Shown here: positions 5,356 to 57,974 of the stretch, piece by piece
How positions within the stretch are numbered: the stretch's first letter is position 1
How the letters are laid out: each line of letters starts with the position of its first letter
Assembly: GCA_035714785.1 (NCBI GenBank)
Contig: DASTLQ010000011.1
Span: 6,124-70,123, forward strand
Direction: 5' to 3'
Length of the DNA stretch: 64,000 bases
Source: Minisyncoccota bacterium
GTDB taxonomy: Bacteria; Patescibacteriota; Minisyncoccia; Phycocordibacterales; UBA9973
Made by a program: the position numbers and the translations under genes
The notes under the pieces: generated by a model
Told to the model about the DNA's origin: nothing
Seen by the model: the letters and a program-made list of their open reading frames with translations, nothing else
The model's database searches: none

Positions 5356-6252
5356 ATGCCGAACCGTCGAAAAAACTCAAAGGTCCTATACGTCGTGTTT
5401 TTCCTGTTGCTCTTAAATGTGTTCTTATTTGTTCATGATAGGCGGGATTCAGATAGGGGGCTTGTGTTTGCTATGTTGGATGTTGGGCAAGGAGATGCAC
5501 TATATATAGAGTCACCGACTGGCACACAGGTGTTAGTAGATGGAGGACCTCTGCGGAAAATTCTTGGAAAGCTTTCCGAGGTGATGCCTTCGTATGATCG
5601 CAAGATAGATGCCCTCATCATGACTCATTCAGACTCGGATCATATTTCGGGTTTCAGTGAAGTCCTGTCGGCGTATGAGGTTGGACAAATGTTTGAACCG
5701 GGCGTGGCCACTGATTCTCTAATTTATGAAAATCTAAAAAAAGAATTAGAAGAAAAAAAGATTCCAAGCGTGATTGCACGAAAGGGAATGCGACTCCATC
5801 TCGGTGGTGGTGCCGTGATTGATATAATTTTTCCAGATAGAGATGTGTATGATTGGGAGACAAATATGGCCTCTCTAGTTTTGAAACTCACCTATGGAGA
5901 TGTTTCCTTCATGCTCACCGGAGATGCTTTGATCGAAACTGAAGAATTGATTTTAAAAGAAACGCCAGCAGAATTTTTAAAAAGCACATATCTAAAAGCT
6001 GGACATCATGGTTCAAAAACTTCCACTTCGCAGAAATTCGCTGAAGCAGTTTCTCCGGAGTACGCGTTAATTTCTGCGGGAAGGGAGAACAACTACGGCC
6101 ACCCGCATCCCGAGGTTTTAGAGATTTTAAAAAGTATAGGTGCACAGATTTTACGCACTGACCATTCTGGCACCCTGTGGATAAAGTGTAAGGGGACCCC
6201 TTACCCCAACATGCAAGGGGACCCCTTGCATGTTATCCACAGGTTCCTATGA
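5356..6252 (+). CDS. ComEC-type metallo-beta-lactamase domain protein (stand-alone MBL half of ComEC)
   Basis: N-terminal TM, then LDVGQGDALYIESPTGTQVLVDGG and HSDSDHISG (MBL HxHxDH). The C-terminal 20 aa (LWIKCKGTPYPNMQGDPLHVIHRFL) are encoded by the palindromic repeat 6185-6243. Confidence 0.75.
   Translation: MPNRRKNSKVLYVVFFLLLLNVFLFVHDRRDSDRGLVFAMLDVGQGDALYIESPTGTQVLVDGGPLRKILGKLSEVMPSYDRKIDALIMTHSDSDHISGFSEVLSAYEVGQMFEPGVATDSLIYENLKKELEEKKIPSVIARKGMRLHLGGGAVIDIIFPDRDVYDWETNMASLVLKLTYGDVSFMLTGDALIETEELILKETPAEFLKSTYLKAGHHGSKTSTSQKFAEAVSPEYALISAGRENNYGHPHPEVLEILKSIGAQILRTDHSGTLWIKCKGTPYPNMQGDPLHVIHRFL
6185..6243. repeat. palindromic repeat family A copy forming the 3' coding tail of the ComEC-MBL ORF
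   Basis: AGTGTAAGGGGACCCCTTACCCCAACATGCAAGGGGACCCCTTGCATGTTATCCACAGG. Confidence 0.85.
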
Positions 6253-7527: not shown

Positions 7528-8001
7528 ATGTCACACATTCATGAAAAAATAGATTGGACAGTAGAAGTTTTTATTGTTCACAAAAATAGAGTACTTCTTC
7601 GCAAGCATGATAAATACAATATCTGGCTTTCAGTTGGTGGGCACATTGAGCTAGATGAGGATCCAGTCGAAGCAGCCAAGAGGGAAGTGAAAGAAGAAGT
7701 GGGACTAGATGTACAACTCATCGGAAGAGATAAAGGTAAAGGCGATGGAAGCGTAGCAGATCACGGATACTTGGATTTATTGCCACCAAAATACCTCGGA
7801 AGACATCCGATAAATGATAATCACGAACATATTACCTTGGTGTATTTTGCAACAACGGAAACCAGCGAAGCTAGCGACCCAAGTGATATTGAAGATGCGG
7901 AAATATTTTGGGCCACAAAGGAAGACCTTGAAAAGATGGACTTATCTCCAAATGTAAAATGGTATGCCCAGAAAGCTCTAGAAGAATTAAGCACCACATA
8001 G
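7528..8001 (+). CDS. NUDIX hydrolase
   Basis: Nudix box GGHIELDEDPVEAAKREVKEEVGL. Confidence 0.7.
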   Translation: MSHIHEKIDWTVEVFIVHKNRVLLRKHDKYNIWLSVGGHIELDEDPVEAAKREVKEEVGLDVQLIGRDKGKGDGSVADHGYLDLLPPKYLGRHPINDNHEHITLVYFATTETSEASDPSDIEDAEIFWATKEDLEKMDLSPNVKWYAQKALEELSTT

Positions 8002-8033
8002 AAAGTTAACCGTTTTTCTGGTATATTTCTCAT

Positions 8034-8732
8034 ATGGCAAAATTAAATAAACAGGGAAAACTGATCGTAATAGATGGTACGGACGGAAGCGGAAAAGCGA
8101 CTCAGGTAAAGCTATTAGAAAAAAGACTAAAGAAAGAAAAGAGAAAAGTGAAGGTGGTGGATTTCCCTGAATATTATGGAAATTTTTTTGGAGCCTTTAT
8201 TGGGCACTGTCTCTCGGAGCAATACTATAATTGGACAAACATTCATCCCAAGATCGCTTCCATCGCATACGCGGCTGACCGCTGGGAATCTTCGGCACAA
8301 ATTAAAAAATGGCTTGCCGAGGGATACATCGTGCTAGCCAATCGATATGTCAGTGCCAATCAAATCCACCAAGGTGGGAAAATAAAAAATGCATCCAAGC
8401 GTGCGTCTTATTTAAAATGGCTCGAAGAAATGGAGTACGGTGTTTTTAAAATCCCTCGACCCGATCGAGTGGTTTACCTAAATGTTCCAATGAAAGTAAT
8501 TTTAAGATTGATAAAAGAAAGGAATAAAAAAACTGCTCGCGCTTATACGGGAAAGAAAAAGGATATAGTTGAAGGAAATGTGGAATATCTGTCTAACTCC
8601 ACCAAAGCCGCGGAGTGGCTTTCACGAAGAGAAAAGGGTTGGATTAAAATAGATTGCGTAAAAGAGGGGATATTACGCACCCCAGAACTTATCCATGAGG
8701 AGATATATGGGAAGATAAAAATAATTCTATGA
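8034..8732 (+). CDS. tmk: thymidylate kinase
   Basis: P-loop IVIDGTDGSGKATQ typical of dTMP kinase; 232 aa. Confidence 0.8.
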   Translation: MAKLNKQGKLIVIDGTDGSGKATQVKLLEKRLKKEKRKVKVVDFPEYYGNFFGAFIGHCLSEQYYNWTNIHPKIASIAYAADRWESSAQIKKWLAEGYIVLANRYVSANQIHQGGKIKNASKRASYLKWLEEMEYGVFKIPRPDRVVYLNVPMKVILRLIKERNKKTARAYTGKKKDIVEGNVEYLSNSTKAAEWLSRREKGWIKIDCVKEGILRTPELIHEEIYGKIKIIL

Positions 8733-9226
8733 AAATTCCGATAGTAAACAAAAGTGACGAAATAGTGAGATATAAGGAACGCTATGAAACAACGACTGAT
8801 GATATCAGAAGAATTATTATATTACATGTATTTAATGAAAATGATGAAGTACTTCTGGCAAAAAGATGTTCGCAAAAGATAATTGATCCTGACAAATGGG
8901 GACCATCTGTGGCTGGAACAGTAGAAGAGGGTTATGATTATGATTCGACTGTGATAAAAGAAGCAGAAGAAGAAATTGGTTTAAAAAATATAAAACCAAT
9001 TTTTATTACGAAATTATTTTACGAAGTTTCGAATGCAAAGAGATTTGCTGCTGTTTATTATTACCACATAAATTCAAAAGAAAATGAGATTGTCTTGCAA
9101 GAGGAAGAAGTAGCAGAAGTAAAATGGATTGGATTTGAAGAATTAGATAAATGGTTTACAGCAAAACCAGAAGAATTCGTTCCTTCCTTTTCTCGGGCGA
9201 TAGAAACTATAAAAATTGCAATATGA
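8729..9226 (+). CDS. NUDIX hydrolase
   Basis: Nudix-like GTVEEGYDYDSTVIKEAEEEIGL; 4-bp overlap with tmk. Confidence 0.6.
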   Translation: MKIPIVNKSDEIVRYKERYETTTDDIRRIIILHVFNENDEVLLAKRCSQKIIDPDKWGPSVAGTVEEGYDYDSTVIKEAEEEIGLKNIKPIFITKLFYEVSNAKRFAAVYYYHINSKENEIVLQEEEVAEVKWIGFEELDKWFTAKPEEFVPSFSRAIETIKIAI

Positions 9227-9648
9227 TTCTAAAAGTTAAAAAATTAAGAGATGATGCGCGATTGCCGACCCATGGACATATGGGAGACGCGGGTATGGAT
9301 TTCTATGCGATAGAAGAAGTGAGGTTTGCTCCGAGGGAGATGGCGCGCATCCCCACAGGCGTGGCTGTTGAAATTCCCGAAGGACATGTCGGACTGATAT
9401 GGGACAAATCTGGGGTAGCTTTTAATCTTGGATTAAAGATAATGGGCGGAGTGGTGGATTCTGGGTATCGGGGAGAGATCATAATGTGCCTCCTTAATAC
9501 TACCGACAAAGAGGTTATAATAGAGAAAGGACGAAAGGTGGCTCAGATGATAGTGCAAAAATTTGAGCATTGCGAGATTCTAGAGGTGGACGAAGTCTCT
9601 GAAAGTATACGCGGGGAAGGTAGAGAAGGAAGCACGGGACATATGTAA
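9223..9648 (+). CDS. dut: dUTP diphosphatase
   Basis: MILKVKKL..ARLPT.GH.GDAGMDFYA..GVVDSGYRGEI dUTPase motifs. The ORF track start at 9151 is probably an upstream extension; ATG at 9223 chosen. Confidence 0.85.
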   Translation: MILKVKKLRDDARLPTHGHMGDAGMDFYAIEEVRFAPREMARIPTGVAVEIPEGHVGLIWDKSGVAFNLGLKIMGGVVDSGYRGEIIMCLLNTTDKEVIIEKGRKVAQMIVQKFEHCEILEVDEVSESIRGEGREGSTGHM

Positions 9649-9652
9649 AAAA

Positions 9653-11371
9653 ATGAAAGAAGAAATAAAAAAAATAATAAACGAAGCACTGCGAGAGCTT
9701 AAAATAGAAGAGACGGATTTTGCCGTGGAGCATCCAGCTGATTTAAAAAACGGGGACTACTCTGTAAACGTAGCAATGGTTTTAGCAAAACAGCTTGGCT
9801 CCAATCCTCGCGAACTTGCCGAACAGATCGCCCAAAGTGTAAGGGGTCAACATGTAAGGGGACCCCTTACCCCTGAACATGCAAGGGGTCCCCTTACACG
9901 TTATCCACAGGTTGAAAAGGTGGAGGTGGCTGGGGCGGGGTTTTTGAATTTCTATCTTTCGAGAAAATTTTTTGCGGATTCCATAGCGGAGATATTGGAA
10001 AAGAATGATAATTTTGGAAAAAACGAAGAAGGTAAAGGGAAAAAAGTAATAATAGAATATTCTTCCCCAAACATTGCAAAGCCTTTCACTATAGGACATT
10101 TGCGTTCTACTATTATTGGTCACGCCTTGGCTAATATTTTTGAATATAACGGATATGAAGTGCTTCGAGACAATCACCTCGGGGATTGGGGGACACAATT
10201 TGGAAAGCTGATCGTAGCCATCAAGCGATATGGTAATGAAGAAGAAATAGGAAAAGCCGAAAGACCAGTAAAAGCGCTCACAGAACTATATGTAAAATTT
10301 CATGCCGAGGCTGAGAAAGATAAAACATTAGAAGACGAAGCGAGAGCATGGTTTACAAAGCTTGAACAAGGAGATAAAGAAGCTAGAGCCATCTGGCAAA
10401 AGTGTGTAGATTGGTCAATGACAGAATTTTCAAAAATATATGAAAGATTAGGTGCTTCTTTTGATATGACTTTGGGAGAAAGTTTTTTTGAAGACAAAAT
10501 GAAAACAGTGATAGAGGATTTGGAGAAGACTGATTTTTATAAAGAATCAGAAGGAGCAAAACTTGTTTTCTTTCCTGACGAAAAACATCCTCCACTCATG
10601 ATACAAAAAAAAGATGGCAGTACTTTGTATGGGACTCGTGACCTTGCTACCGATAAATATAGGAGGGATACTTGGAACCCAGACTTAGTAGTAAACGAAG
10701 TAGGAATGGAGCAGTCATTATATTTCAAACAGCTTTTTGAAGTAGAAGAAATGCTTGGATATTTTAAAAAAGAACAAAGAGTCCACGTAGCTCATGGTCT
10801 GTATAAATTTAAAGAAGGAAAAATGAGTACCAGAAAAGGAAATGTAATCTGGCTTGAAGACGTGCTTGATGAAGCAAAAAAAAGAGCAGGCAAAATTAAT
10901 GAAGAGACAGCGGAAGTGGTAGGCATAGGGGCGATAAAATTTAATGACCTTCGAAGTGAAAGTCGAAAAGATATTATATTCAACTGGGGGGACATTTTGA
11001 ATTTGGATGGAGACTCTGGTCCTTATGTACAGTATTCGTACGTCCGCACAAAGGCGATAGAAAATAAGGCAAAAGAATTGGGAATAGAAAAAAGCATCGC
11101 TCAGCCAACCGAGGAGATATTTGAGATTGAGAAACTGCTGTATCGTTTTCCGGAAGTGGTATCTCGTGCACGGGAAACTTACGCTCCGCATGTCATCGCT
11201 CAATATCTTTTAGAAGTGGCACACGAATTCAGTTCGTTTTATGGAAATACTCAAGTATTGAAAGAGGAAGATCCTTTCTCTCCGTATAAGCTTGCCGTGG
11301 TCGAAGCGACAGGTATCGTAATCAAAAAAGGCCTTTGGATCCTCGGCATCCAGACCCCCGAAAAAATGTAA
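9653..11371 (+). CDS. argS: arginine--tRNA ligase, with an in-frame palindromic-repeat insertion
   Basis: Arg_tRNA_synt_N (..EKVEVAGAGFLNFYL), class I core (SSPNIAKPFTIGHLRST) and DALR anticodon-binding domain. Bases 9836-9911 are a copy of the GTAAGGGGWCCCCTTAC/TTATCCACA repeat read in frame as RGQHVRGPLTPEHARGPLTRYPQ. Confidence 0.9.
   Translation: MKEEIKKIINEALRELKIEETDFAVEHPADLKNGDYSVNVAMVLAKQLGSNPRELAEQIAQSVRGQHVRGPLTPEHARGPLTRYPQVEKVEVAGAGFLNFYLSRKFFADSIAEILEKNDNFGKNEEGKGKKVIIEYSSPNIAKPFTIGHLRSTIIGHALANIFEYNGYEVLRDNHLGDWGTQFGKLIVAIKRYGNEEEIGKAERPVKALTELYVKFHAEAEKDKTLEDEARAWFTKLEQGDKEARAIWQKCVDWSMTEFSKIYERLGASFDMTLGESFFEDKMKTVIEDLEKTDFYKESEGAKLVFFPDEKHPPLMIQKKDGSTLYGTRDLATDKYRRDTWNPDLVVNEVGMEQSLYFKQLFEVEEMLGYFKKEQRVHVAHGLYKFKEGKMSTRKGNVIWLEDVLDEAKKRAGKINEETAEVVGIGAIKFNDLRSESRKDIIFNWGDILNLDGDSGPYVQYSYVRTKAIENKAKELGIEKSIAQPTEEIFEIEKLLYRFPEVVSRARETYAPHVIAQYLLEVAHEFSSFYGNTQVLKEEDPFSPYKLAVVEATGIVIKKGLWILGIQTPEKM
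9836..9911. repeat. palindromic repeat family A copy inserted in frame in argS
   Basis: AGTGTAAGGGGTCAACATGTAAGGGGACCCCTTACCCCTGAACATGCAAGGGGTCCCCTTACACGTTATCCACAGG. Confidence 0.85.
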
Positions 11372-11374
11372 CGT

Positions 11375-11498
11375 GCAAAGTGCAAGGGGGCTGTGGATAA
11401 CATGTAAGGGGACCCCTTACACTTTATCCACACATACCACCCTTACCTGTGGATAACATGCAAGGGGACCCCTTACCCCTTATCCCGGCGCCCCTTAC
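11375..11498. repeat. cluster of family A repeat units with four DnaA-box 9-mers (argS-ileS intergenic)
   Basis: ..GTGCAAGGGGGCTGTGGATAACATGTAAGGGGACCCCTTACACTTTATCCACACATACCACCCTTACCTGTGGATAACATGCAAGGGGACCCCTTACCCCTTATCCCGGCGCCCCTTAC.. Confidence 0.9.
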
Positions 11499-11524: not shown

Positions 11525-14500
11525 ATGGCCGACGAAAACAAAGAAAACAAAGAAAATACGACTTCGAAATCCGAAAGCGCTCTGCGAGAAGAGGGCATTT
11601 TAAAATTTTGGGAAGAAAATCATACTTTTCAAAAAACCCTACAACGACCCTCCCCTAAAGGCGAATTCATTTTTTACGAAGGTCCTCCTACAGCAAACGG
11701 AAAGCCCGGCATCCATCACCTCGAAGCTCGCGCTTTCAAAGATGTTATCCCTCGATACAAAACCATGTCCGGCTACCATGTGCGCCGAAAGGGGGGCTGG
11801 GATACTCACGGCTTGCCAGTGGAATTACAGGTGGAAAAAAAGCTAGGACTTGATTCCAAGAAGGCGATCGAAGAGTATGGTATCGCAAAATTTAACGAAG
11901 AATGTAAAGAAAGTGTTTGGGAGTATGTGGATCTTTGGGAAAAATTTACCAGCAGGACAGGATATTGGCTGGACCAGAAAGATGCGTATGCTACTTATGA
12001 CAACACATATATTGAATCAGTTTGGAATATTTTAAAACATGTAGACGAGCAAAAACTTCTATACAAAGATTACAAAGTGGTGCCATGGTGTCCACGTTGT
12101 GGAACGGTGCTATCTTCGCACGAACTTGCTCAAGGATATGAAGATGTAAAAGATCTTTCCGTGTATGCAAAATTTCGACTCGCCGATGGTAGCCTCGCCG
12201 ATGCTGGCCTCGCCGATAACGACCTAGCGAATAAAGACACATACATTCTTGCATGGACCACTACTCCATGGACATTGCCCGGCAACGTCGCGCTAGCAGT
12301 AGGGGAGGATATTGATTATGTAAAAGCAAAAGTTGGCGAAGAAGTGCTAATCCTAGCCAAAGAAAGAATTTCTATTTTACCCGAAGGGTATGAAATTTTG
12401 GAAGAAATAAAAGGAGCCAAGCTCGTGGGCCTCGAATATGAACCCCTGTATCCATTCCTAGCAGAAACTATTTCCGAAACCGAAAAGCCAAAATTAGAAA
12501 AAGCATACAAGATATACAGCGCAGACTTCGTGACTACTACAGACGGTACTGGAGTGGTTCATACAGCAGTGATGTATGGACAGGACGACTTTGCGCTCGG
12601 CACTAAAATCGGACTTCCAAAACACCACCTCGTAGGCTTGGATGGAAAATTTCTACCAGGCACAGGAAACTTCGAAGGAAGATTTGTGCGTGATGAAGAT
12701 GTGGCCGTAGATGTGATCAAAGATCTTGCTTCCCGCAATCTTTTATTTAAAAAAGAAAAATACGAACACTCATATCCGCATTGCTGGCGCTGTCACACTG
12801 CACTCATCTACTACGCTCGTGATTCATGGTATATAAAAATGTCTGATCCAAGGATCAAAGACAAAATGATCTCGGAAAACAAGAGCATTAACTGGGAGCC
12901 AGCCCATATTCGCGATGGAAGGTTTGGGGAATGGCTAAGAGAAATAAAAGATTGGGCAATTTCTCGAGAGCGATATTGGGGTACTCCTTTGCCAGTATGG
13001 GAATGTAATAAATGTCACAAGCGCGAAGTGATCGGTAGCCTCGAAGAGCTTCGAGGTAAGGCAAAAAAATCTGGCAACAAATATTGTGTGATGCGTCACG
13101 GGGAGACTGACAAGAATATCACTAATACTATATGTACTACTGTAAATAGCGGATCCCAACTTACAGAAAATGGAAAAAAGAGCACCCTCGCTACGGCCGA
13201 AAATCTTAAAAAAGAAAATATAAATATTATTATTACTTCTGAATTCCATCGCACTCGAGCAACGGCGGAAATAGTAGCTCCCTTGCTGGGAATTCCACAA
13301 TCAGACATAGTCGTAGATCCTCGACTGGGAGAAATAAAAGTACCAAGCTATGAGGGAAAAAGCTGGACCGAATATCACAAAGATTATCCTCATACGGTAG
13401 AAAATTTTACTAAAGCTCCAGAGGGAAATGAATCATACGAAGACGTGAGAGCTCGCTTGGCAGATTTCCTTTGTGATATTGAAAGTAAATATCAAAATAA
13501 AAATATTCTTATCATCACTCATGGTGCTCCTTCATGGCTCATGACTGCTGTTTCGCGATTGCTTGATGTAGACGAGACACTTAAACTTGTTCAAAGTTCA
13601 AAAGATTATCATTACTTGGCAAATTCTGAAGCGCAGGTGCTTCCTTTCTCTCCTTTTCCTCATGACGGTAAAGGAAATCTAGATCTGCATCGCCCATACA
13701 TCGACAATATGATCGTAGAGTGTGAATGTGGTGGTACTTCGGAGAGAGTGAAAGAGGTGGTGGACGTTTGGTTTGACTCCGGCGCTATGCCGTTTGCCCA
13801 AGATCATTATCCTTTCAAAAATAAAAAATGGGTAGATGGTCCCGGATATCCTGCGGACTATATTTCTGAAGCTATCGATCAGACTCGTGGTTGGTTTTAT
13901 ACCTTGCATGCTATCGGAGTACTTCTCGGAAAGGGAAAGGCATATAAAAATGTAATTTGTTTGGGGCACCTGCTGGATTCCGCTGGTAAAAAAATGTCCA
14001 AATCTCTCGGCAACATAGTGGATCCGTGGATTATGATAGAAAAATACGGAGTAGACACTTTGCGCCTGTGGATGTATTCAGTAAATCAACCTGGAGAATC
14101 AAAGAATTTCGATGAAAAAACAGTCACCTTGGTGCATCGTCAGTTTTTCGGTCTACTGTACAATGTGCTTTCTTTCTATGAACTCTATCGTGAAAAAGAT
14201 TTGGAAAAAAATGAAGAACCAAAACCGCAAAACGTGCTCGATATTTGGATAATAGTGAGATTGCACGAACTGGTGGAGCTTTGTACAAAAGGTCTAAATG
14301 AATTTAAACTAATTGAACCAGTCCGAGCGATTCGTGATTTTATTGATGACCTATCCACCTGGTACTTGCGACGTTCGCGAGAGAGAATTAAAGAAGGGGA
14401 CAAAGAAGCAAAAGCTACTCTGTATTATGTTTTGCGCACTCTTTCCCAATTGCTCGCTCCCTTTGCTCCATTTTCCGCCGAAGACATCTGGCAAAAATTG

Positions 14501-15076
14501 CGCCGAGAAGGAGATGAAGGAAGCGTACATCTTTCCACTTGGCCAAAAGTAAAAATTTCCATTTTGCGATCATTTACTAAGCGCGATACATATGTAATTG
14601 AACACATGATAAAAACTCGCGAGATAGTGACTCTTGGCTTGGAAGCAAGACAGCGAAGAGGAATAAAAGTACGTCAGCCTCTGGGAATGATTCGGGTCAA
14701 AGATTTTGGCTTGCCAGAAGAATATGCAGAGGTAGTGAGAGACGAGCTAAATGTAAAAGAAATTCGCAGAGACCCTGGCATCAAAGAAGAAGTGCACCTC
14801 GAAACAGAAATCACCCCGGAGCTTCGCCAAGAAGGTGACTATCGCGAAGTGGTCCGTGCGATACAAGATTTGCGAAAGAAAATCGGACTTATGCCAAACG
14901 ACCTCGTCACTCTCACTATCTCCCTATCAGACCCCTTGAAATCCGTCATCGAAAAATACGAGCGTGAACTTTCTAAAGTAGTAGGAGCGACCGAAATAAA
15001 ATACGAAGAAAATGATGGCGAGGAATCTAAGATTGGAGACGAAACTGTCAAAATAAAAATCCAGAAAAGATCCTAA
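11525..15076 (+). CDS. ileS: isoleucine--tRNA ligase with an inserted histidine-phosphatase (PGM-like) domain
   Basis: GPPTANGKPGIHH (HIGH region), CP1 editing region, KMSKSLGN; 1183 aa. Between WECNKCHKREVIGSLEEL and LDLHRPYIDNMIVECECGG sit ~200 aa carrying VMRHGETDKN and ITHGAP, the signature of the histidine phosphatase superfamily branch 1. Confidence 0.9.
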   Translation: MADENKENKENTTSKSESALREEGILKFWEENHTFQKTLQRPSPKGEFIFYEGPPTANGKPGIHHLEARAFKDVIPRYKTMSGYHVRRKGGWDTHGLPVELQVEKKLGLDSKKAIEEYGIAKFNEECKESVWEYVDLWEKFTSRTGYWLDQKDAYATYDNTYIESVWNILKHVDEQKLLYKDYKVVPWCPRCGTVLSSHELAQGYEDVKDLSVYAKFRLADGSLADAGLADNDLANKDTYILAWTTTPWTLPGNVALAVGEDIDYVKAKVGEEVLILAKERISILPEGYEILEEIKGAKLVGLEYEPLYPFLAETISETEKPKLEKAYKIYSADFVTTTDGTGVVHTAVMYGQDDFALGTKIGLPKHHLVGLDGKFLPGTGNFEGRFVRDEDVAVDVIKDLASRNLLFKKEKYEHSYPHCWRCHTALIYYARDSWYIKMSDPRIKDKMISENKSINWEPAHIRDGRFGEWLREIKDWAISRERYWGTPLPVWECNKCHKREVIGSLEELRGKAKKSGNKYCVMRHGETDKNITNTICTTVNSGSQLTENGKKSTLATAENLKKENINIIITSEFHRTRATAEIVAPLLGIPQSDIVVDPRLGEIKVPSYEGKSWTEYHKDYPHTVENFTKAPEGNESYEDVRARLADFLCDIESKYQNKNILIITHGAPSWLMTAVSRLLDVDETLKLVQSSKDYHYLANSEAQVLPFSPFPHDGKGNLDLHRPYIDNMIVECECGGTSERVKEVVDVWFDSGAMPFAQDHYPFKNKKWVDGPGYPADYISEAIDQTRGWFYTLHAIGVLLGKGKAYKNVICLGHLLDSAGKKMSKSLGNIVDPWIMIEKYGVDTLRLWMYSVNQPGESKNFDEKTVTLVHRQFFGLLYNVLSFYELYREKDLEKNEEPKPQNVLDIWIIVRLHELVELCTKGLNEFKLIEPVRAIRDFIDDLSTWYLRRSRERIKEGDKEAKATLYYVLRTLSQLLAPFAPFSAEDIWQKLRREGDEGSVHLSTWPKVKISILRSFTKRDTYVIEHMIKTREIVTLGLEARQRRGIKVRQPLGMIRVKDFGLPEEYAEVVRDELNVKEIRRDPGIKEEVHLETEITPELRQEGDYREVVRAIQDLRKKIGLMPNDLVTLTISLSDPLKSVIEKYERELSKVVGATEIKYEENDGEESKIGDETVKIKIQKRS

Positions 15077-15657
15077 TGCACCACATATATCACACCGAAG
15101 GGTTGATACTCTCAAGTAGAAATTTTGGAGAGGCTGGAAAATACTACCGCATTTTTACTCGCGACCTCGGAATGATAAATGCTTCGGCCCAAGGTGTTCG
15201 CAAGATGTCTTCCAAGCTCCGCTTTATTCTGCAAGATTTTTCTTATGTAAAAGTAGACTTAGTCAAAGGCAAAGACTTTTGGCGTCTTACTAGCGCCTCC
15301 AAAACCAATCAGCTAGAAAAATTAGCCAAAGACCCTCAAAAATTTGCCATTTTCGCCAATATTTCGCGTCTTTTGAAAAGACTTTTGGCAGGAGAGGAGC
15401 CAAATAGTGATCTTTTTGATGATCTTAAAAATGGATTAAAGATCTTGGAGACTTTTTCTGACTCAAAAGATCTTAAAAATATTGAAGCTTTGCTAGTATT
15501 GCGGATTTTGGGCCGACTTGGATATATCGGAGACGCCGACGCACTCCTCGGCTGGGTGCAATCCCCTTTTGGGGAAGACTTAGTCAGGGAGGCTGACAAA
15601 AAGAGAAGTATAATTCTAAGGGAGATAAACAAGGCTTTGAAAGAAACTCAGCTCTAG
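15076..15657 (+). CDS. recO: DNA repair protein RecO
   Basis: N-terminal OB-fold segment TEGLILSSRNFGEAGKYYRIFTRDLGMINASAQGVRK resembles RecO; 193 aa (short form). Confidence 0.65.
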   Translation: MHHIYHTEGLILSSRNFGEAGKYYRIFTRDLGMINASAQGVRKMSSKLRFILQDFSYVKVDLVKGKDFWRLTSASKTNQLEKLAKDPQKFAIFANISRLLKRLLAGEEPNSDLFDDLKNGLKILETFSDSKDLKNIEALLVLRILGRLGYIGDADALLGWVQSPFGEDLVREADKKRSIILREINKALKETQL

Positions 15658-20246: not shown

Positions 20247-20340
20247 AGTGTAAGGTGTAAGGGGCCCGGCGCAGGGTAAGGGGTCCCCTTACACTTTATC
20301 CACACCCTGTGGATAACATGCAAGGGGACCCCTTACCCCT
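20247..20340. repeat. family A repeat cluster (M16 peptidase-metG intergenic)
   Basis: GTGTAAGGTGTAAGGGGCCCGGCGCAGGGTAAGGGGTCCCCTTACACTTTATCCACACCCTGTGGATAACATGCAAGGGGACCCCTTACCCC. Confidence 0.9.
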
Positions 20341-20344
20341 AAAT

Positions 20345-21778
20345 ATGAAAAAAACATTCTATCTCACAACGACGCTTCCATACGTAAATGCCCCTCTTCA
20401 TATGGGACACGCCCTTGAGTTTGTACGGGCGGATGCGGTGGTACGTTATAAGCGTTGGACAGGAAATGAGGTCTTTTTTAATACGGGAACTGATGAGCAT
20501 GGTGCAAAAATCTTTGAAAAAGCCAGCGAAGCAGGAATGACGGCGCAGGAATTTGTGGACAAAGGATTTCAGGAGTTCAAAGAATCGCTTTCAATGTTTG
20601 GCATGTCGGAGGACATTCATTTCATCCGCACTACGGATGAAAATCATATAGAAGCGGCTCAAGAATTTTGGCGCCGTTGCGACAAGGCTGGATATATTTA
20701 TAAAAAGAATTACCAAATCAAATATTGTATCGGTTGTGAGTCCGAAAAATCAGATTCTGAGCTCGAAGATGGCAAATGCACTATTCATCCTGATCGCGCA
20801 CTTGAGCTCATCAGCGAAGAAAACTATTTTTTCAAATATTCTGAGTTCGGCGATAAATTGCTCGAATTTTATGAAAAGAATCCAGATTTTGTGGTGCCAG
20901 ATTTTCGTTTTAATGAAGTAAAAAATTTCGTGCGCACGGGTTTGCAGGATTTTTCAATATCTCGCCTGAAAGAAAAGATGCCATGGGGCGTACCAGTACC
21001 GGGGGATGACACTCAGGTGATGTATGTCTGGTTTGATGCGCTTACAAACTATATTTCTACCTTGGGTTGGCCAACAGAAGGAGGTGATTTTGAAAAATTC
21101 TGGGTAAATGGAACTCCTACTCAGTATTGCGGAAAGGACAACACTCGCTTTCAGGCAGCTATGTGGCAAGCGATGCTCATGGGTGCAGGTGTGCCAAATT
21201 CTCGTCAAATAATAGTAAACGGATTCATCATGGGTGGCGGAGGAGTAAAGATGTCAAAGTCTCTTGGAAATGTAGTAGATCCAAAAGATGTGGCTAGCCA
21301 ATATGGCACCGAGGCACTGCGATATTTTCTTTTAGGTGAAGTCGGAAGCTTTGAGGATAGTCCTTTTACCATAGAGCGTTTTAGCGATGCATACAATGCT
21401 AAGCTTTCAAACGGTCTCGGCAATCAGGCGTCCAGAATACTTGCTCTTTCAGAAAAGTATTTAGAAAAAGCTCCGCAGATTTCTGAGGGAGAATATAGCG
21501 AGTATCAAGAAATTTTTGAAAGTTACGATTTAAAGAAGGCGGTAGATTACATATGGGAAAAAATTTCCGCGCTGGATAAGTTTATACAAGAAACGGAACC
21601 ATTCAAAGTGATTAAGAACGATGAGCAGGCCGGCAGGGAACTACTTTCTAAAATGATCGTGGATCTTTATCATATTGCAGAAATGCTGACACCAATCATG
21701 CCCGTGACCTCCGAAAAAATTAAAAGTTTAATCAAGCAGAACAAAAAACCCGAAGCACCCCTCTTTCCCCGCCTCTAG
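20345..21778 (+). CDS. metG: methionine--tRNA ligase (short form without C-terminal tRNA-binding domain)
   Basis: PYVNAPLHMGHAL (HIGH) and KMSKSLGN. The ORF track start 20309 (MDNMQGDPLPLN) lies in the palindromic repeat, so the start is moved to ATG 20345 (MKKTFYLTT). Confidence 0.9.
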   Translation: MKKTFYLTTTLPYVNAPLHMGHALEFVRADAVVRYKRWTGNEVFFNTGTDEHGAKIFEKASEAGMTAQEFVDKGFQEFKESLSMFGMSEDIHFIRTTDENHIEAAQEFWRRCDKAGYIYKKNYQIKYCIGCESEKSDSELEDGKCTIHPDRALELISEENYFFKYSEFGDKLLEFYEKNPDFVVPDFRFNEVKNFVRTGLQDFSISRLKEKMPWGVPVPGDDTQVMYVWFDALTNYISTLGWPTEGGDFEKFWVNGTPTQYCGKDNTRFQAAMWQAMLMGAGVPNSRQIIVNGFIMGGGGVKMSKSLGNVVDPKDVASQYGTEALRYFLLGEVGSFEDSPFTIERFSDAYNAKLSNGLGNQASRILALSEKYLEKAPQISEGEYSEYQEIFESYDLKKAVDYIWEKISALDKFIQETEPFKVIKNDEQAGRELLSKMIVDLYHIAEMLTPIMPVTSEKIKSLIKQNKKPEAPLFPRL

Positions 21779-21848
21779 GGTAAGGGGTCCCCTTACACTT
21801 TATCCACACCCTGTGGATAACATGCAAGGGGACCCCTTACCCTTACAC
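21778..21848. repeat. family A repeat (metG-tatD intergenic)
   Basis: GGGTAAGGGGTCCCCTTACACTTTATCCACACCCTGTGGATAACATGCAAGGGGACCCCTTACCCTTACAC. Nearly identical to the 20280-20340 copy. Confidence 0.9.
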
Positions 21849-34399: not shown

Positions 34400-35980
34400 A
34401 TGAACGAAAACAAAACTGGAAGAAGGATTGCGGGACCGGTGGTGCTCATGGTGCTCGATGGCTGGGGATATAGGGAAGACACGAAAGACAATGCCATTGC
34501 AGGCGCGCGAAAGCCCGTTTTTGATAGGTTATGGAGAGAATATCCTCATGCATTACTGAAGGCTTCCGGAGAGGCTGTGGGGCTTCCTGAGGGGCAAATG
34601 GGAAATAGCGAGGTGGGTCATATGACTATCGGAGCTGGACGGCCAGTGGATACAGATTTAGTGAGGATAGATAAAGCAATCAGCTCAGGAGATTTTGAAA
34701 AAAATCCTACATTTCTTGCGATTTTTGATCATGTAAAAAAGCACGGCTCTGTGCTTCATGTGCAAGGATTGGTTTCTCCAGGGGGAGTGCATAGTCATCA
34801 AAATCATCTTTATGCATTTTTACATTTAGCCAAGAAAAATGCTGTGCCAAAGGTGGCTATTCATGTGTTTACAGATGGGAGGGATACTGCTCCGCAGAGT
34901 GCTTCGGCGTATATGAAAGAGCTTGAGTCCGTGTTAGAGATTCTAAATGCAGACAGTGATCCAAAAAATCCCGCCTTCTTTATCGCCACTATCTCTGGTA
35001 GATATTTTGCAATGGACCGAGATCAAAACTGGGACCGCTTGGCAAAGACTGAGCAGGCTATGTTTGATTGCGAGGGGAATGTGTGTGAAATAAAGCCATC
35101 GGCGTACCTGGAAGAGCAATACCAAAAAGGAAAAAGTGATGAGCTTTTGGAGCCAGCAGTGTGTGCTACTCCACTTGGTCTTGGCTGTGCTATCGAAAAA
35201 AATGACGCAGTATTCTTTTTCAATTTTAGAGCAGACAGAGCGCGAATGCTTTCTGAAAAAATGCTTACTCGGCCAGATTTGCCAAATATTCTTTTTGCAA
35301 CTATGACGGAGTACAGGGCGGACTTTTCTTCACTGATTGCTTTTCCGCCTTTTGAACCTAGAGCAACCCTTGGTGGAGAGATTGCGCGGGCTGACATGAA
35401 GCAGTGTCATGTTGCCGAGACAGAAAAATTTGCTCACGTTACTTACTTTTTTAATTGTGGGAGAGAGACGCCGTATGAGGGTGAGAAAGATATCCTCCTG
35501 AAGAGTAGGACGGATATAAAGACGCATGACGAGGCGCCTGAAATGCAAGCGAAGGGGATTGCGGATGCTGTGATTGCAGAAATTGAAAAAGGAGAATGTG
35601 ATTTTATTCTATTAAATTTTGCTAACGCTGACATGGTGGGGCATACAGCCAACGTACCAGCCACTATTGAGGCGGTAGAGGTGGTAGACAGGGAGCTGGG
35701 GCGAATTATGGAGGCGTTAGAGAAAAAAGGTGGAGTGGCGCTCGTCACGGCCGATCATGGAAATGCGGAAGTAAATGTGGATCCTGCGACTGGAATCAGG
35801 CACACTGCGCACACTACTGCCTTGGTGCCGTTTGTGGTGACGGTTTCGGGGGAAATTGCGCACGTTGGTGGAGTGAAAGGTGATGCTCGAGCGGGCGGAC
35901 TGGCCGACGTTGCGCCTACCGTACTTTCCTTGCTCGGACTAGAAATCCCTAACGAAATGACCGGCCGACCTCTCATCTAG
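34400..35980 (+). CDS. gpmI: 2,3-bisphosphoglycerate-independent phosphoglycerate mutase
   Basis: LDGWG.R, NSEVGHMTIGAGR and the C-terminal metal-binding ADHGN; 526 aa. Confidence 0.93.
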   Translation: MNENKTGRRIAGPVVLMVLDGWGYREDTKDNAIAGARKPVFDRLWREYPHALLKASGEAVGLPEGQMGNSEVGHMTIGAGRPVDTDLVRIDKAISSGDFEKNPTFLAIFDHVKKHGSVLHVQGLVSPGGVHSHQNHLYAFLHLAKKNAVPKVAIHVFTDGRDTAPQSASAYMKELESVLEILNADSDPKNPAFFIATISGRYFAMDRDQNWDRLAKTEQAMFDCEGNVCEIKPSAYLEEQYQKGKSDELLEPAVCATPLGLGCAIEKNDAVFFFNFRADRARMLSEKMLTRPDLPNILFATMTEYRADFSSLIAFPPFEPRATLGGEIARADMKQCHVAETEKFAHVTYFFNCGRETPYEGEKDILLKSRTDIKTHDEAPEMQAKGIADAVIAEIEKGECDFILLNFANADMVGHTANVPATIEAVEVVDRELGRIMEALEKKGGVALVTADHGNAEVNVDPATGIRHTAHTTALVPFVVTVSGEIAHVGGVKGDARAGGLADVAPTVLSLLGLEIPNEMTGRPLI

Positions 35981-38848: not shown

Positions 38849-39006
38849 GGGGACCCCTTCAAGGGTCCACCTTCGCCAGAGGCGAAGGCGGACCCTTACC
38901 TGTGGATAACATGCAAGGGGACCCCTTACACTTTATCCACCTGTGGATAACATGCAAGGGGACCCCTTCAAGGGTCCACCTTCACCAGAGGCGAAGGCGG
39001 ACCCTT
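38843..39006. repeat. composite repeat cluster: family A units + two copies of family B GC-rich hairpin (AAGGGTCCACCTTCRCCAGAGGCGAAGGCGGACCCTT)
   Basis: GTGTAAGGGGACCCCTTC-AAGGGTCCACCTTCGCCAGAGGCGAAGGCGGACCCTT-ACCTGTGGATAACATGCAAGGGGACCCCTTACACTTTATCCACCTGTGGATAACATGCAAGGGGACCCCTTC-AAGGGTCCACCTTCACCAGAGGCGAAGGCGGACCCTT. Confidence 0.9.
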
Positions 39007-41782: not shown

Positions 41783-41866
41783 GGGTAAGGGGTCCCCTTG
41801 CATGTTATCCACAGGTAAGGGTGGTGGGTGTGGATAAAGTGTAAGGGGTCCCCTTACACCTTACTT
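41783..41866. repeat. family A repeat pair (beta-CASP/LOG intergenic)
   Basis: GGGGTAAGGGGTCCCCTTGCATGTTATCCACAGGTAAGGGTGGTGGGTGTGGATAAAGTGTAAGGGGTCCCCTTACACC. Confidence 0.9.
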
Positions 41867-50739: not shown

Positions 50740-51315
50740 TTGAGCAATTGGCTTTCTTGTTTCCCGTTGTCTTTAGAGAGAATAAGGGAGTTGAGAGACA
50801 ATAGTCCTATTCGGATAAAGAATTATAAGAACACGGTAAAAATAAGAAATAAAAATCACATTGATAAAGTTTATAAAAAAGTTTCGAAAGATATAGGTTT
50901 GTTTTCTAAAAGAGATTTATTTATAGCAGGAATGTTTCTGTACTGGGGAGAAGGTACAAAAACTCAGGAAGCAATGGTTACTCTAACAAATACTAATCCA
51001 GCAATGCTTAAGTTGTATATTAAATGGCTTGGATTATTTAATGTTAGAAGAAAAGATCTAAAAGTTAAATTACATTTGTATTCCGATATGAATATTAATG
51101 AAAGTGTTATTTTTTGGTCTAAAGAGCTTAGGATTCCAATAAATCAATTTTGTAAGCCCTATATTAAAAAATCTAGTTTGAAATCAATATCCTACAAGAA
51201 GGGCTTTGGAAAAGGGACATGTAGTGTTATATTTGGCAGTAAGCCTCTTTGGGAATATATAATGTTTGGGTTAAAATACATAGGAGAGGTATGTAATAAA
51301 GAACCCCGCCCTTAG
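50740..51315 (+). CDS. LAGLIDADG-like homing endonuclease family protein (likely frameshifted at an A7 run; N-terminal HTH encoded from ATG 50643 in another frame)
   Basis: IAGMFLYWGEGTKT resembles the LAGLIDADG motif. The HTH segment IELRLSGHSYSQIKKELKVSKSTLSNWL is in frame with the ORF but upstream of any ATG. ATG 50643 (MAKRKLKK..) reaches this frame only if the A7 tract 50659-50665 is read as A8. Confidence 0.4.
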   Translation: MSNWLSCFPLSLERIRELRDNSPIRIKNYKNTVKIRNKNHIDKVYKKVSKDIGLFSKRDLFIAGMFLYWGEGTKTQEAMVTLTNTNPAMLKLYIKWLGLFNVRRKDLKVKLHLYSDMNINESVIFWSKELRIPINQFCKPYIKKSSLKSISYKKGFGKGTCSVIFGSKPLWEYIMFGLKYIGEVCNKEPRP

Positions 51316-51377
51316 CTCAGTTGGTAGAGCAGACGACTTATACTCGTCTTGTCCTAGGTTCGAGTCCTAGAGGGCGG
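51305..51377 (+). tRNA. tRNA-Ile (anticodon UAU)
   Basis: 73 nt cloverleaf: acceptor CCGCCCT/AGGGCGG, D-arm GCTC-AGTTGGTA-GAGC, anticodon stem GACGA/TCGTC with loop CTTATAC (U33, anticodon TAT, A37), T-arm CTAGG-TTCGAGT-CCTAG, discriminator A. CCA not encoded. Confidence 0.75.
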
Positions 51378-51380
51378 ACA

Positions 51381-51983: not shown

Positions 51984-52070
51984 ACATGCAAGGGGACCTG
52001 TGGATAACATGCAAGGGGACCCCTTACACTTTATCCACACCCACTAACATGCAAGGGGACCCCTTACACC
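51984..52070. repeat. family A repeat cluster (HD hydrolase/recG convergent intergenic)
   Basis: CATGCAAGGGGACCTGTGGATAACATGCAAGGGGACCCCTTACACTTTATCCACACCCACTAACATGCAAGGGGACCCCTTACACC. Confidence 0.9.
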
Positions 52071-57909: not shown

Positions 57910-57974
57910 GGTGTAAGGGGACCCCTTACCCTGTGGATAACATGCAAGGGGTCCCCTTACATGTTATCCACAGG
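57910..57974. repeat. family A composite 45-bp near-perfect palindrome (two inverted DnaA boxes around the core)
   Basis: GGTGTAAGGGGACCCCTTACC-CTGTGGATAACATGCAAGGGGTCCCCTTACATGTTATCCACAGG. Confidence 0.9.

Follow-up and report, generated by a model that had tools for sequence, protein, structure and literature searches.

The ileS gene and its insert

The 64,000-nucleotide stretch analysed here (the window), from a Minisyncoccota bacterium assembly (GCA_035714785.1, contig DASTLQ010000011.1), holds one ileS gene only, and the isoleucyl-tRNA synthetase (IleRS) that it encodes carries a histidine-phosphatase domain inside its catalytic core. An in-frame insertion of a branch-1 histidine phosphatase had been predicted from the sequence, and this was confirmed: the open reading frame (ORF) is continuous over 1183 aa, and the Pfam model His_Phos_1 (PF00300) matches aa 521-676 (E=2.6e-32; 112.5 bits, gathering score 21.7). 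The motifs quoted in the original prediction (WECNKCHK, VMRHGETDKN, SEFHRTRATA, ITHGAPSWLM, DLHRPYID and CECGG) are all present, but the coordinates it gave for the insertion, 13060-13675, lie one base out of frame and hold 17 stops; the in-frame segment is 13061-13675, aa 513-717. A protein identical to the window IleRS is present as an NCBI entry from a 'Candidatus Paceibacterota' metagenome-assembled genome, where it lies on a 73-kb contig. On the sequence and structural tests applied, all of which agree, the synthetase is to be classed as an IleRS of type 2 and the insert as a histidine phosphatase of branch 1.

The features of the gene are given below. Conservation was scored over the 120 best full-length homologues (61-68% identity, 1143-1270 aa), drawn from NCBI, JGI, ENA and Logan assemblies with contigs of up to 672 kb, and in an alignment of 65 sequences.

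11525..15076, + strand: ileS, type-2 isoleucyl-tRNA synthetase with internal phosphatase; single uninterrupted ORF of 1183 aa
11708..11719, + strand: class I signature in the non-canonical form GIHH, aa 62-65, read from sequence
12257..12274, + strand: threonine-rich motif TTTPWT of the CP1 editing domain, aa 245-250; W244-T250 invariant in the 65-sequence alignment
13004..13015, + strand: first half of the second zinc knuckle, C494-x-x-C497 (WECNKCHK); aligns to Thermus thermophilus (Tth) C461/C464; cysteine in 113/120 homologues
13064..13084, + strand: N-side linker KKSGNKY, aa 514-520, entering phosphatase strand 1; K515, S516, N518 and Y520 96-100% conserved in the 120 homologues
13076..13645, + strand: histidine-phosphatase (branch 1) domain, aa 518-707, equal to a whole free-standing protein of ~190 aa
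13094..13099, + strand: putative catalytic R524-H525 of the RHG motif (VMRHGETDKN), H525 being the predicted phospho-acceptor; 120/120, and invariant in the 65 sequences at 39-68% identity
13250..13252, + strand: putative catalytic R576, second phosphate-binding arginine (SEFHRTRATA); 120/120, invariant
13331..13333, + strand: E603, predicted general acid; 120/120
13520..13522, + strand: putative catalytic H666, second histidine (ITHGAPSWLM); 120/120, invariant
13646..13678, + strand: C-side linker FSPFPHDGKGN, aa 708-718, leading back to IleRS; F708, P712 and H713 95-98% conserved in the 120 homologues
13682..13729, + strand: IleRS resumes with DLHRPYID and C733-E-C735 (CECGG), second half of the zinc knuckle; aligns to Tth 489-504 including C502/C504; C733 is cysteine in 113/120
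13991..14005, + strand: KMSKS motif, aa 823-827, read from sequence; K823, S825 and K826 invariant in the 65 sequences
14240..15067, + strand: anticodon-binding domain, aa 906-1053 (PF08264, E=8e-30), and type-2 C-terminal DUF5915, aa 1090-1181 (PF19302, E=4e-18, 66 bits)

Assignment of the synthetase part was consistent across methods. The NCBIfam ileS model TIGR00392 scored 854.3 bits (cut-off 621.4) in two stretches parted by the insert, and Pfam placed His_Phos_1 between the halves of a split tRNA-synt_1 domain (PF00133), followed by Anticodon_1 and DUF5915. The best sequence matches among solved structures were T. thermophilus IleRS (1ILE, E=1e-234) and P. megaterium IleRS2 (8C8W, E=1e-233), the editing-domain structures 1WK8 and 1WNY of Tth IleRS align to aa 204-419 (1WK8, E=7e-33), and a full-length AlphaFold model (AF2; pLDDT 90.4, pTM 0.83) matched IleRS2 structures in Foldseek with TMt of 0.80-0.85. 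The C-terminal organisation is that of type 2, with PF19302 present and with IleRS2 and Tth IleRS, not IleRS1, as the best structural matches. The motifs for aminoacylation and editing are all intact, and the synthetase part of the protein looks functional. The GXHH form of the class I signature, a swapped HXGH motif, is functional in IleRS2 and tied to mupirocin hyper-resistance (PMC10485003); at this position, canonical HYGH is found instead of the GIHH of the window IleRS in the relatives examined, both insert-less and multi-insert. A low-complexity stretch in CP1, LADGSLADAGLADNDLA (aa 219-235, 12179-12229), had also been singled out from the sequence. The stretch is real, but it falls in a loop that is hypervariable in length and sequence (4 versus 30-40 residues among close homologues), and on alignment it is a hypervariable rather than a conserved feature, with no evident significance.

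The position of the insert could be fixed to within a few residues. Against 1ILE, query residues 22-515 align to Tth 14-482 and residues 719-1013 to Tth 488-793, leaving ~203 additional residues (aa 516-718) where Thermus IleRS has ~5, in agreement with the ~200-aa segment predicted at a site where IleRS is normally short. The flanking CxxC and CxC pairs align to the second zinc site, which places the base of the insert in the loop of that knuckle. This point corresponds to residues 478-484 of P. megaterium IleRS2, and because the second half of the HUP core of that enzyme starts at residue 513 (PMC10485003), the site lies in the connective-peptide region ahead of the second Rossmann (HUP) half. 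In the full-length model the linker blocks have pLDDT values of 88-94 (~89 for the N-side and 88-90 for the C-side linker), and such confident linkers suggest a docked rather than a floppy phosphatase domain. G+C content is 0.39-0.42 over the insert and 0.42-0.45 in its flanks, with no step at the boundaries. No HINT/intein domain was among the Pfam matches of the ORF, and an intein or self-splicing insertion was rejected, as the phosphatase fold and linkers of 5-12 aa account for the whole insert.

Fold, catalytic residues and family of the phosphatase

Taken alone, the insert scored higher against PF00300 than within the full protein (117.3 bits, E=8.7e-34), and its isolated AF2 model was confident (pLDDT 89.2, pTM 0.88), with cap helices present. 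Modelling thus shows the insert as an autonomous, confidently folded domain on short conserved linkers.

Conservation is concentrated on the active site. In addition to the residues listed above, N531 is kept in 120/120 homologues and G526 and R644 in 119/120; the catalytic set is invariant or nearly so in alignments down to 30-48% identity. Among the complete domain copies of 145 cluster representatives, the R-H-R-...-H series is kept throughout and the position of E603 holds E or D in all but one. Mean identity to the query is 44% for the insert vs 75% for the IleRS core, and the non-catalytic part of the insert evolves ~2x as fast as the core. From a catalytic set frozen amid a drifting scaffold we infer that the inserted phosphatase is probably active.

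Structural neighbours of the insert model in Foldseek were GpgP Rv2419c (6S2Q/4QIH), PhoE (1H2E), the phosphoserine phosphatase PspA (4IJ5), the riboflavin-pathway phosphatase HFP and CobC, at TM ~0.7 and probability 1.0; the nearest solved structures are all short, cap-bearing small-molecule phosphatases and none is a mutase. The insert shares with PhoE/YhfR (1EBB, 1H2E), GpgP Rv2419c (4PZ9, 6S2Q), PspA (4IJ5), HFP (9MMH) and CobC (6NRU) the fold, a length of ~190-210 aa, the cap subdomain and the RHG...N, R, E and H residues. By sequence, however, it is only 20-27% identical to these proteins (E from 3e-6 down to 6e-11, the latter for PhoE, the closest by this measure), and it is embedded in another enzyme whereas they are free-standing.

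Scores against named subfamilies all fell short of the curated cut-offs. The top-scoring model was CobC (TIGR03162, alpha-ribazole phosphatase), at 76.8 bits against a cut-off of 162.9, and identity with CobC was rejected on that score. The second-best NCBIfam match, the RNase H/acid phosphatase family NF005567, reached 75.7 bits against 326. Identity with SixA (TIGR00249) was likewise rejected, with 28.2 bits against 74.5, a match confined to aa 10-83 of the insert, and cap helices in the model. The cofactor-dependent phosphoglycerate mutase (dPGM) models gave 22.6 bits against 81.7 (TIGR01258) and 71.2 against 225 (NF038349).

The combination of domains has partial precedents. The synthetase scaffold is that of Tth IleRS (1ILE) and P. 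megaterium IleRS2 (8C8U-8C9D), with the HUP/Rossmann core, CP1, two zinc knuckles, KMSKS, anticodon-binding domain and DUF5915 in common, and the GXHH variant is shared with hyper-resistant IleRS2; the difference is the ~203-residue phosphatase at Tth 482-488 (PmIleRS2 478-484), where the solved IleRS have nothing. Extra catalytic domains in aminoacyl-tRNA synthetases (aaRS) include CP1 editing, the IleRS with GNAT described in NCBIfam, and terminal fusions. The GNAT-containing IleRS (NF040702) sets a precedent for an additional enzymatic domain in this synthetase, although membership of the window protein in that family was rejected (314 bits vs 1999, and no GNAT Pfam match). Rv2228c-type RNase H/acid phosphatases (NF005567) offer a parallel for a CobC-like phosphatase fused to a nucleic-acid enzyme, but the insert falls under that cut-off. 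In the window protein the extra domain is internal to the zinc knuckle and not terminal, and the functions of those fusions do not explain the one found here. The original prediction knew of no aaRS with a phosphatase domain, and literature searches agree: no description of a histidine-phosphatase or PGM-like domain in any aaRS or in a Candidate Phyla Radiation (CPR) IleRS was found, and a 2026 preprint surveying IleRS domain architecture and evolution makes no mention of a phosphatase insert. Insert-bearing proteins sit in public databases under generic names such as 'class I tRNA ligase family protein', an annotation that the architecture explains.

Linkage of the phosphatase to ileS across the lineage

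The insert is shared by a broad set of Paceibacteria/Parcubacteria (CPR). PF00133, PF00300, PF08264 and PF19302 occur together in 120/120 of the best full-length homologues, and more distant partial proteins (38-48% identity over the junctions) also carry the insert. When an insert profile was run over a set with a single genome for each GTDB species, at least 349 loci were confirmed, bearing names that include Paceibacterota, Nomurabacteria, Adlerbacteria, Kaiserbacteria, Zambryskibacteria, Minisyncoccia and Parcubacteria; a complete 716-kb chromosome, OZ246403.1, is among the genomes with an insert-bearing ileS. For locus comparison 80 of these loci were retained. The order IleRS-N, insert, IleRS-C on one strand was found in 80/80, and where the frame is complete the ORF exceeds 1100 aa in 65/67 (median 1173). 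The question raised from the single sequence, whether the insertion is lineage-wide, is thereby answered, and the architecture is almost certainly both real and general to the lineage.

A search of 1.84 billion cluster representatives with the insert profile returned 587 matches at E<=1e-30. The best 150 of these, which were inspected, are mostly IleRS with the insert, along with about ten free-standing proteins of 187-201 aa. The free-standing proteins start M-K-L-N-N-K-Y-F-x-L-R-H-G and end in N-G-E-L-R-K-L-N, and they match the insert from the N-linker (KKSGNKYxVMRHG) up to just short of the C-linker, which they lack. Hence, the insert amounts to one entire free-standing protein plus linkers of ~5 and ~12 aa. 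Two of them, P0338 and P0491 from Ca. Staskawiczbacteria, are 35-39% identical to the window insert (E=1e-31 to 7e-35). At least 317 clusters of the free-standing form were counted, named Patescibacteria or Staskawiczbacteria.

In 7/7 genomes checked, the closest free-standing relative is encoded directly upstream of the gene for an insert-less IleRS2 (931-983 aa), at a distance of 2-70 nt, and the adjacency of phosphatase and ileS holds in 7/7 even with argS displaced or absent. These loci usually run argS, phosphatase, ileS, recO, a DUF11-like protein and a class II aaRS, an order matched in the window, where argS is followed by ileS with its insert, recO, a DUF11 protein and a class II aaRS. 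These 'PhoE-like' proteins of Patescibacteria thus resemble the insert in clade, NKYF-x-RHG start, catalytic residues and argS-ileS-recO locus; they differ in being separate genes beside an IleRS with an uninterrupted zinc knuckle, 38-43% identical to the window IleRS. The original prediction had held that the insert is a domain and not a neighbouring gene. That holds for the window, whereas sister lineages encode the same phosphatase as a gene of its own immediately before ileS. For each of the 80 insert-bearing loci, a span of +/-4 kb contains a single domain of the phosphatase clade, namely the one inside ileS. In every locus examined, the free-standing and the inserted state are shown to exclude each other, so a single gene occupies either of two addresses, just upstream of ileS or within it. 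Tight linkage of the phosphatase to ileS, as immediate upstream gene or internal domain, is firmly shown, and this genetic linkage is the key new evidence.

Neighbouring genes of the window that bear on the comparison are as follows.

9653..11371, + strand: argS, arginyl-tRNA synthetase, upstream neighbour (Pfam tRNA-synt_1d, DALR_1, Arg_tRNA_synt_N); upstream of ileS in 51/80 related loci
15076..15657, + strand: recO, downstream neighbour (Pfam RecO_N, RecO_C); downstream of ileS in 61/80 related loci
34400-35980: cofactor-independent phosphoglycerate mutase, iPGM (Pfam Metalloenzyme and iPGM_N)

When all six frames of the window were scanned with a hidden Markov model of the insert, ileS was the sole match, and no phosphatase domain of the insert type was found in the window ArgRS, MetRS (20309-21778) or class II aaRS.

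Some IleRS representatives hold more than one copy. In P0294, P0322, P0331, P0277, P0319, P0344, P0367 and P0241, two to four phosphatase domains are present, at up to three other loops. A tandem pair sits at the zinc knuckle in P0319, P0344 and P0367; further copies lie directly past the second cysteine pair (P0277, P0319), in the HYPF...PADFI loop ahead of the GxDQTRGWF helix (P0294, P0322, P0277), and in the loop that links the stem-contact fold to the anticodon-binding helices (P0294, P0322, P0331). In the numbering of the window IleRS, the three additional sites fall at aa ~763-770, at aa ~892-896 and just past C735. The P0294 cluster (locus L090, 6001-10260) was found on a 1.06-Mb contig; the genes beside it there, for PurA, DAHP synthase and a protein with an SLH domain, point to a lineage outside the typical Paceibacteria. 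Other domains also occur. In P0374 (locus L091, 5238-9425) the zinc knuckle bears a phosphatase and the next loop a P-loop kinase-like domain (aa 737-869; AAA_18/AAA_33/Zeta_toxin matches), and P0327 holds an IS200-like Y1 transposase domain (aa 340-461), a phosphatase and a GNAT domain (aa 935-1063). In the best 150 representatives, the only non-IleRS host protein of the phosphatase clade is a single fusion to Sua5/YciO/YrdC (TsaC-like, t6A pathway), P0341 (locus L086, 977-2140), whose context, between a HAD hydrolase and a PD-(D/E)XK nuclease, is uninformative.

Several further observations concern the DNA around ileS. Upstream of argS, 7528-9648 encodes a NUDIX protein, a thymidylate/deoxynucleoside kinase, a second NUDIX protein and a dUTPase, and the last two ORFs before argS (8729-9226 and 9151-9648) overlap by ~76 nt as listed. 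ArgRS (9653-11371) has an odd short internal repeat, VRGQHVRGPLTPEHARGPLTRYPQ, at ~aa 63-86 of its N-terminal domain. A DnaA-box-like 9-mer, TTATCCACA/TGTGGATAA, has 22 copies in the window vs 0.5 expected, at 763-802, 6176-6241, 11391-11485, 20296-20316, 21800-21820, 38901-38950, 41805-41837, 51999-52039 and 57932-57972, with single copies at 9901, 36009 and 58636. Most copies form inverted pairs 12-60 nt apart in intergenic gaps, and in the argS-ileS gap they give rise to a direct repeat of 39 nt together with a hairpin, TGTGGATAACATGTAAGGGG-A-CCCCTTACACTTTATCCACA, that is nearly perfect. The set looks like a dispersed family of REP (repetitive extragenic palindromic)-like or terminator-like palindromes rather than an origin. 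A tRNA-Ile reading UAU had been proposed as possibly relevant to the insert; ARAGORN does place tRNA-Ile(TAT) at 51306-51379, but it is 36 kb away and no link to the insert was found, the latter lying in the catalytic core and not in the anticodon-recognition domains.

Proposed function of the fusion and competing explanations

We read the protein as probably a genuine bifunctional enzyme of lineage-wide distribution, in which a type-2 IleRS bears a complete PhoE/GpgP/CobC-like phosphatase (~190 aa) grafted at the tip of its second zinc knuckle. It may have originated when an operon neighbour moved into a permissive loop of IleRS, or the move may have run in the reverse direction. By the predicted chemistry, H525 would attack a phosphomonoester, E603 would protonate the leaving group, and water would then release phosphate from the phospho-histidine. 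Phosphatase activity could be tied to IleRS through 1:1 co-expression or through action beside the synthetic site, and we lean slightly towards a functional coupling of the two that is under selection. Given the structural neighbours, a small and possibly nucleotide-like phosphomonoester is favoured as substrate; AMP or another nucleoside phosphate ranks first, by analogy and with low confidence.

Several points weigh against this reading. Dephosphorylation of AMP would be wasteful and has no convincing physiological rationale. The best family matches (CobC, RNase H/acid phosphatase and PspA) all fall under curated cut-offs, so that no subfamily assignment holds. A neighbour-joining tree built from 149 phosphatase domains has a star-like shape and long terminal branches, and it neither separates the candidate ancestral states nor gives a count of insertions. 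The presence of unrelated P-loop kinase-like and GNAT domains in the same IleRS loops indicates that these loops may simply be permissive. Adjacency and fusion can, moreover, arise by neutral capture, with selection acting only on a housekeeping phosphatase.

Neutral capture is the strongest of the alternatives, possible though on balance doubtful. A housekeeping phosphatase next to ileS would have been dropped into permissive loops by illegitimate recombination, and the inserted copy kept active once the free-standing one was lost. Mutually exclusive states are what one essential gene changing its address would produce, and capture would also accord with the foreign domains taken up by the same loops, with the far faster divergence of the insert than of the core (44% vs 75% identity) and with generic metabolic phosphatases as the nearest characterised relatives. 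However, the phosphatase stays adjacent to ileS in all seven located cases, even those with no argS alongside, which suggests selection for co-expression. Recurrent insertion at several loops, giving 2-4 intact copies per polypeptide, is hard to ascribe to a single accident; the linkers are conserved and confidently modelled; and, bar the one Sua5 fusion, the clade is hosted by no other protein in the best 150 representatives.

Coupling of the phosphatase to IleRS could instead serve quality control or repair, with phosphate or pyrophosphate removed from tRNA-Ile, from IleRS or from an enzyme-bound nucleotide, which we consider improbable. The phosphatase would then be placed at the edge of the catalytic core of IleRS, and would have been recruited repeatedly, as operon partner, as single insert and as 2-4 inserts. 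If true, a class I aaRS would have a third active site, besides those for synthesis and editing.

A little less probable still is a phosphatase directed at macromolecules, either tRNA or IleRS itself, with a role in repair or immunity: removal of a 3'-phosphate or pyrophosphate from tRNA, healing after ribotoxin cleavage, or reversal of toxin-kinase action at the KMSKS region. Known toxins pyrophosphorylate tRNA CCA ends, HipA-type kinases phosphorylate class I aaRS, and the histidine-phosphatase superfamily includes the protein phosphatases SixA, PGAM5 and Sts-1. The partner of the phosphatase is, specifically, an enzyme that handles tRNA; a close relative is joined to Sua5/TsaC, which likewise modifies tRNA and forms an adenylate; and the pairing of phosphatase and P-loop kinase-like domain in P0374 recalls kinase-plus-phosphatase end-healing enzymes. 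Yet every structural neighbour has a cap subdomain and acts on small molecules, the SixA score falls short of its cut-off (28.2 bits vs 74.5), and a PADLOC scan gave no defence matches. To our knowledge, no RNA end phosphatase has the histidine-phosphatase fold. Repair would also be expected for more than one aaRS, yet the nearby ArgRS, MetRS and class II aaRS are without the domain, and just one Sua5 fusion is at hand, whose surroundings are uninformative.

That the phosphatase fold serves only as a scaffold or tRNA-binding part, catalytically dead, is very unlikely. Many domains appended to aaRS are non-catalytic, and the confident linkers suggest rigid docking. Nevertheless, the catalytic residues are invariant over >140 diverged copies, extra copies included, in surroundings at ~44% identity, and this invariance amid drift points to catalysis, or phosphate binding at the least, as the target of selection. 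Similarly, the PGM-like fold might suggest the dPGM of the cell moonlighting in IleRS, which is highly unlikely: both dPGM models score far under their cut-offs, the closest structures are phosphatases and not mutases, the C-terminus of the domain leads straight into IleRS with no mutase-type tail, and a separate iPGM gene is encoded in the window, so the insert is not needed as glycolytic mutase. Finally, an assembly chimera or missed frameshift joining two or three genes, conceivable for a metagenome-assembled genome and a phosphatase that is truly a separate gene in other lineages, has a negligible chance of being right, given a continuous frame, a composition with no step, an insert that parts two zinc-knuckle halves contiguous in solved IleRS structures, and the recurrence of this colinear arrangement in all 80 species representatives compared and, over four data sources, in hundreds of assemblies made independently, on contigs of up to 716 kb (the complete chromosome) and 1.06 Mb.

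The aaRS are among the best-studied enzymes, and new biology has come to light time and again from their accessory domains for editing, tRNA binding and signalling. In the present case an entire class of uncultured bacteria seems to depend on an IleRS with a second, apparently active enzyme inside it, of a type unreported in aaRS. The fusion offers what looks like a natural example of an operon neighbour turned internal domain, and it marks surface loops of IleRS that tolerate insertions of 200 aa. It also raises the question of which phosphorylated compound matters for isoleucyl-tRNA synthesis in minimal symbiotic cells.

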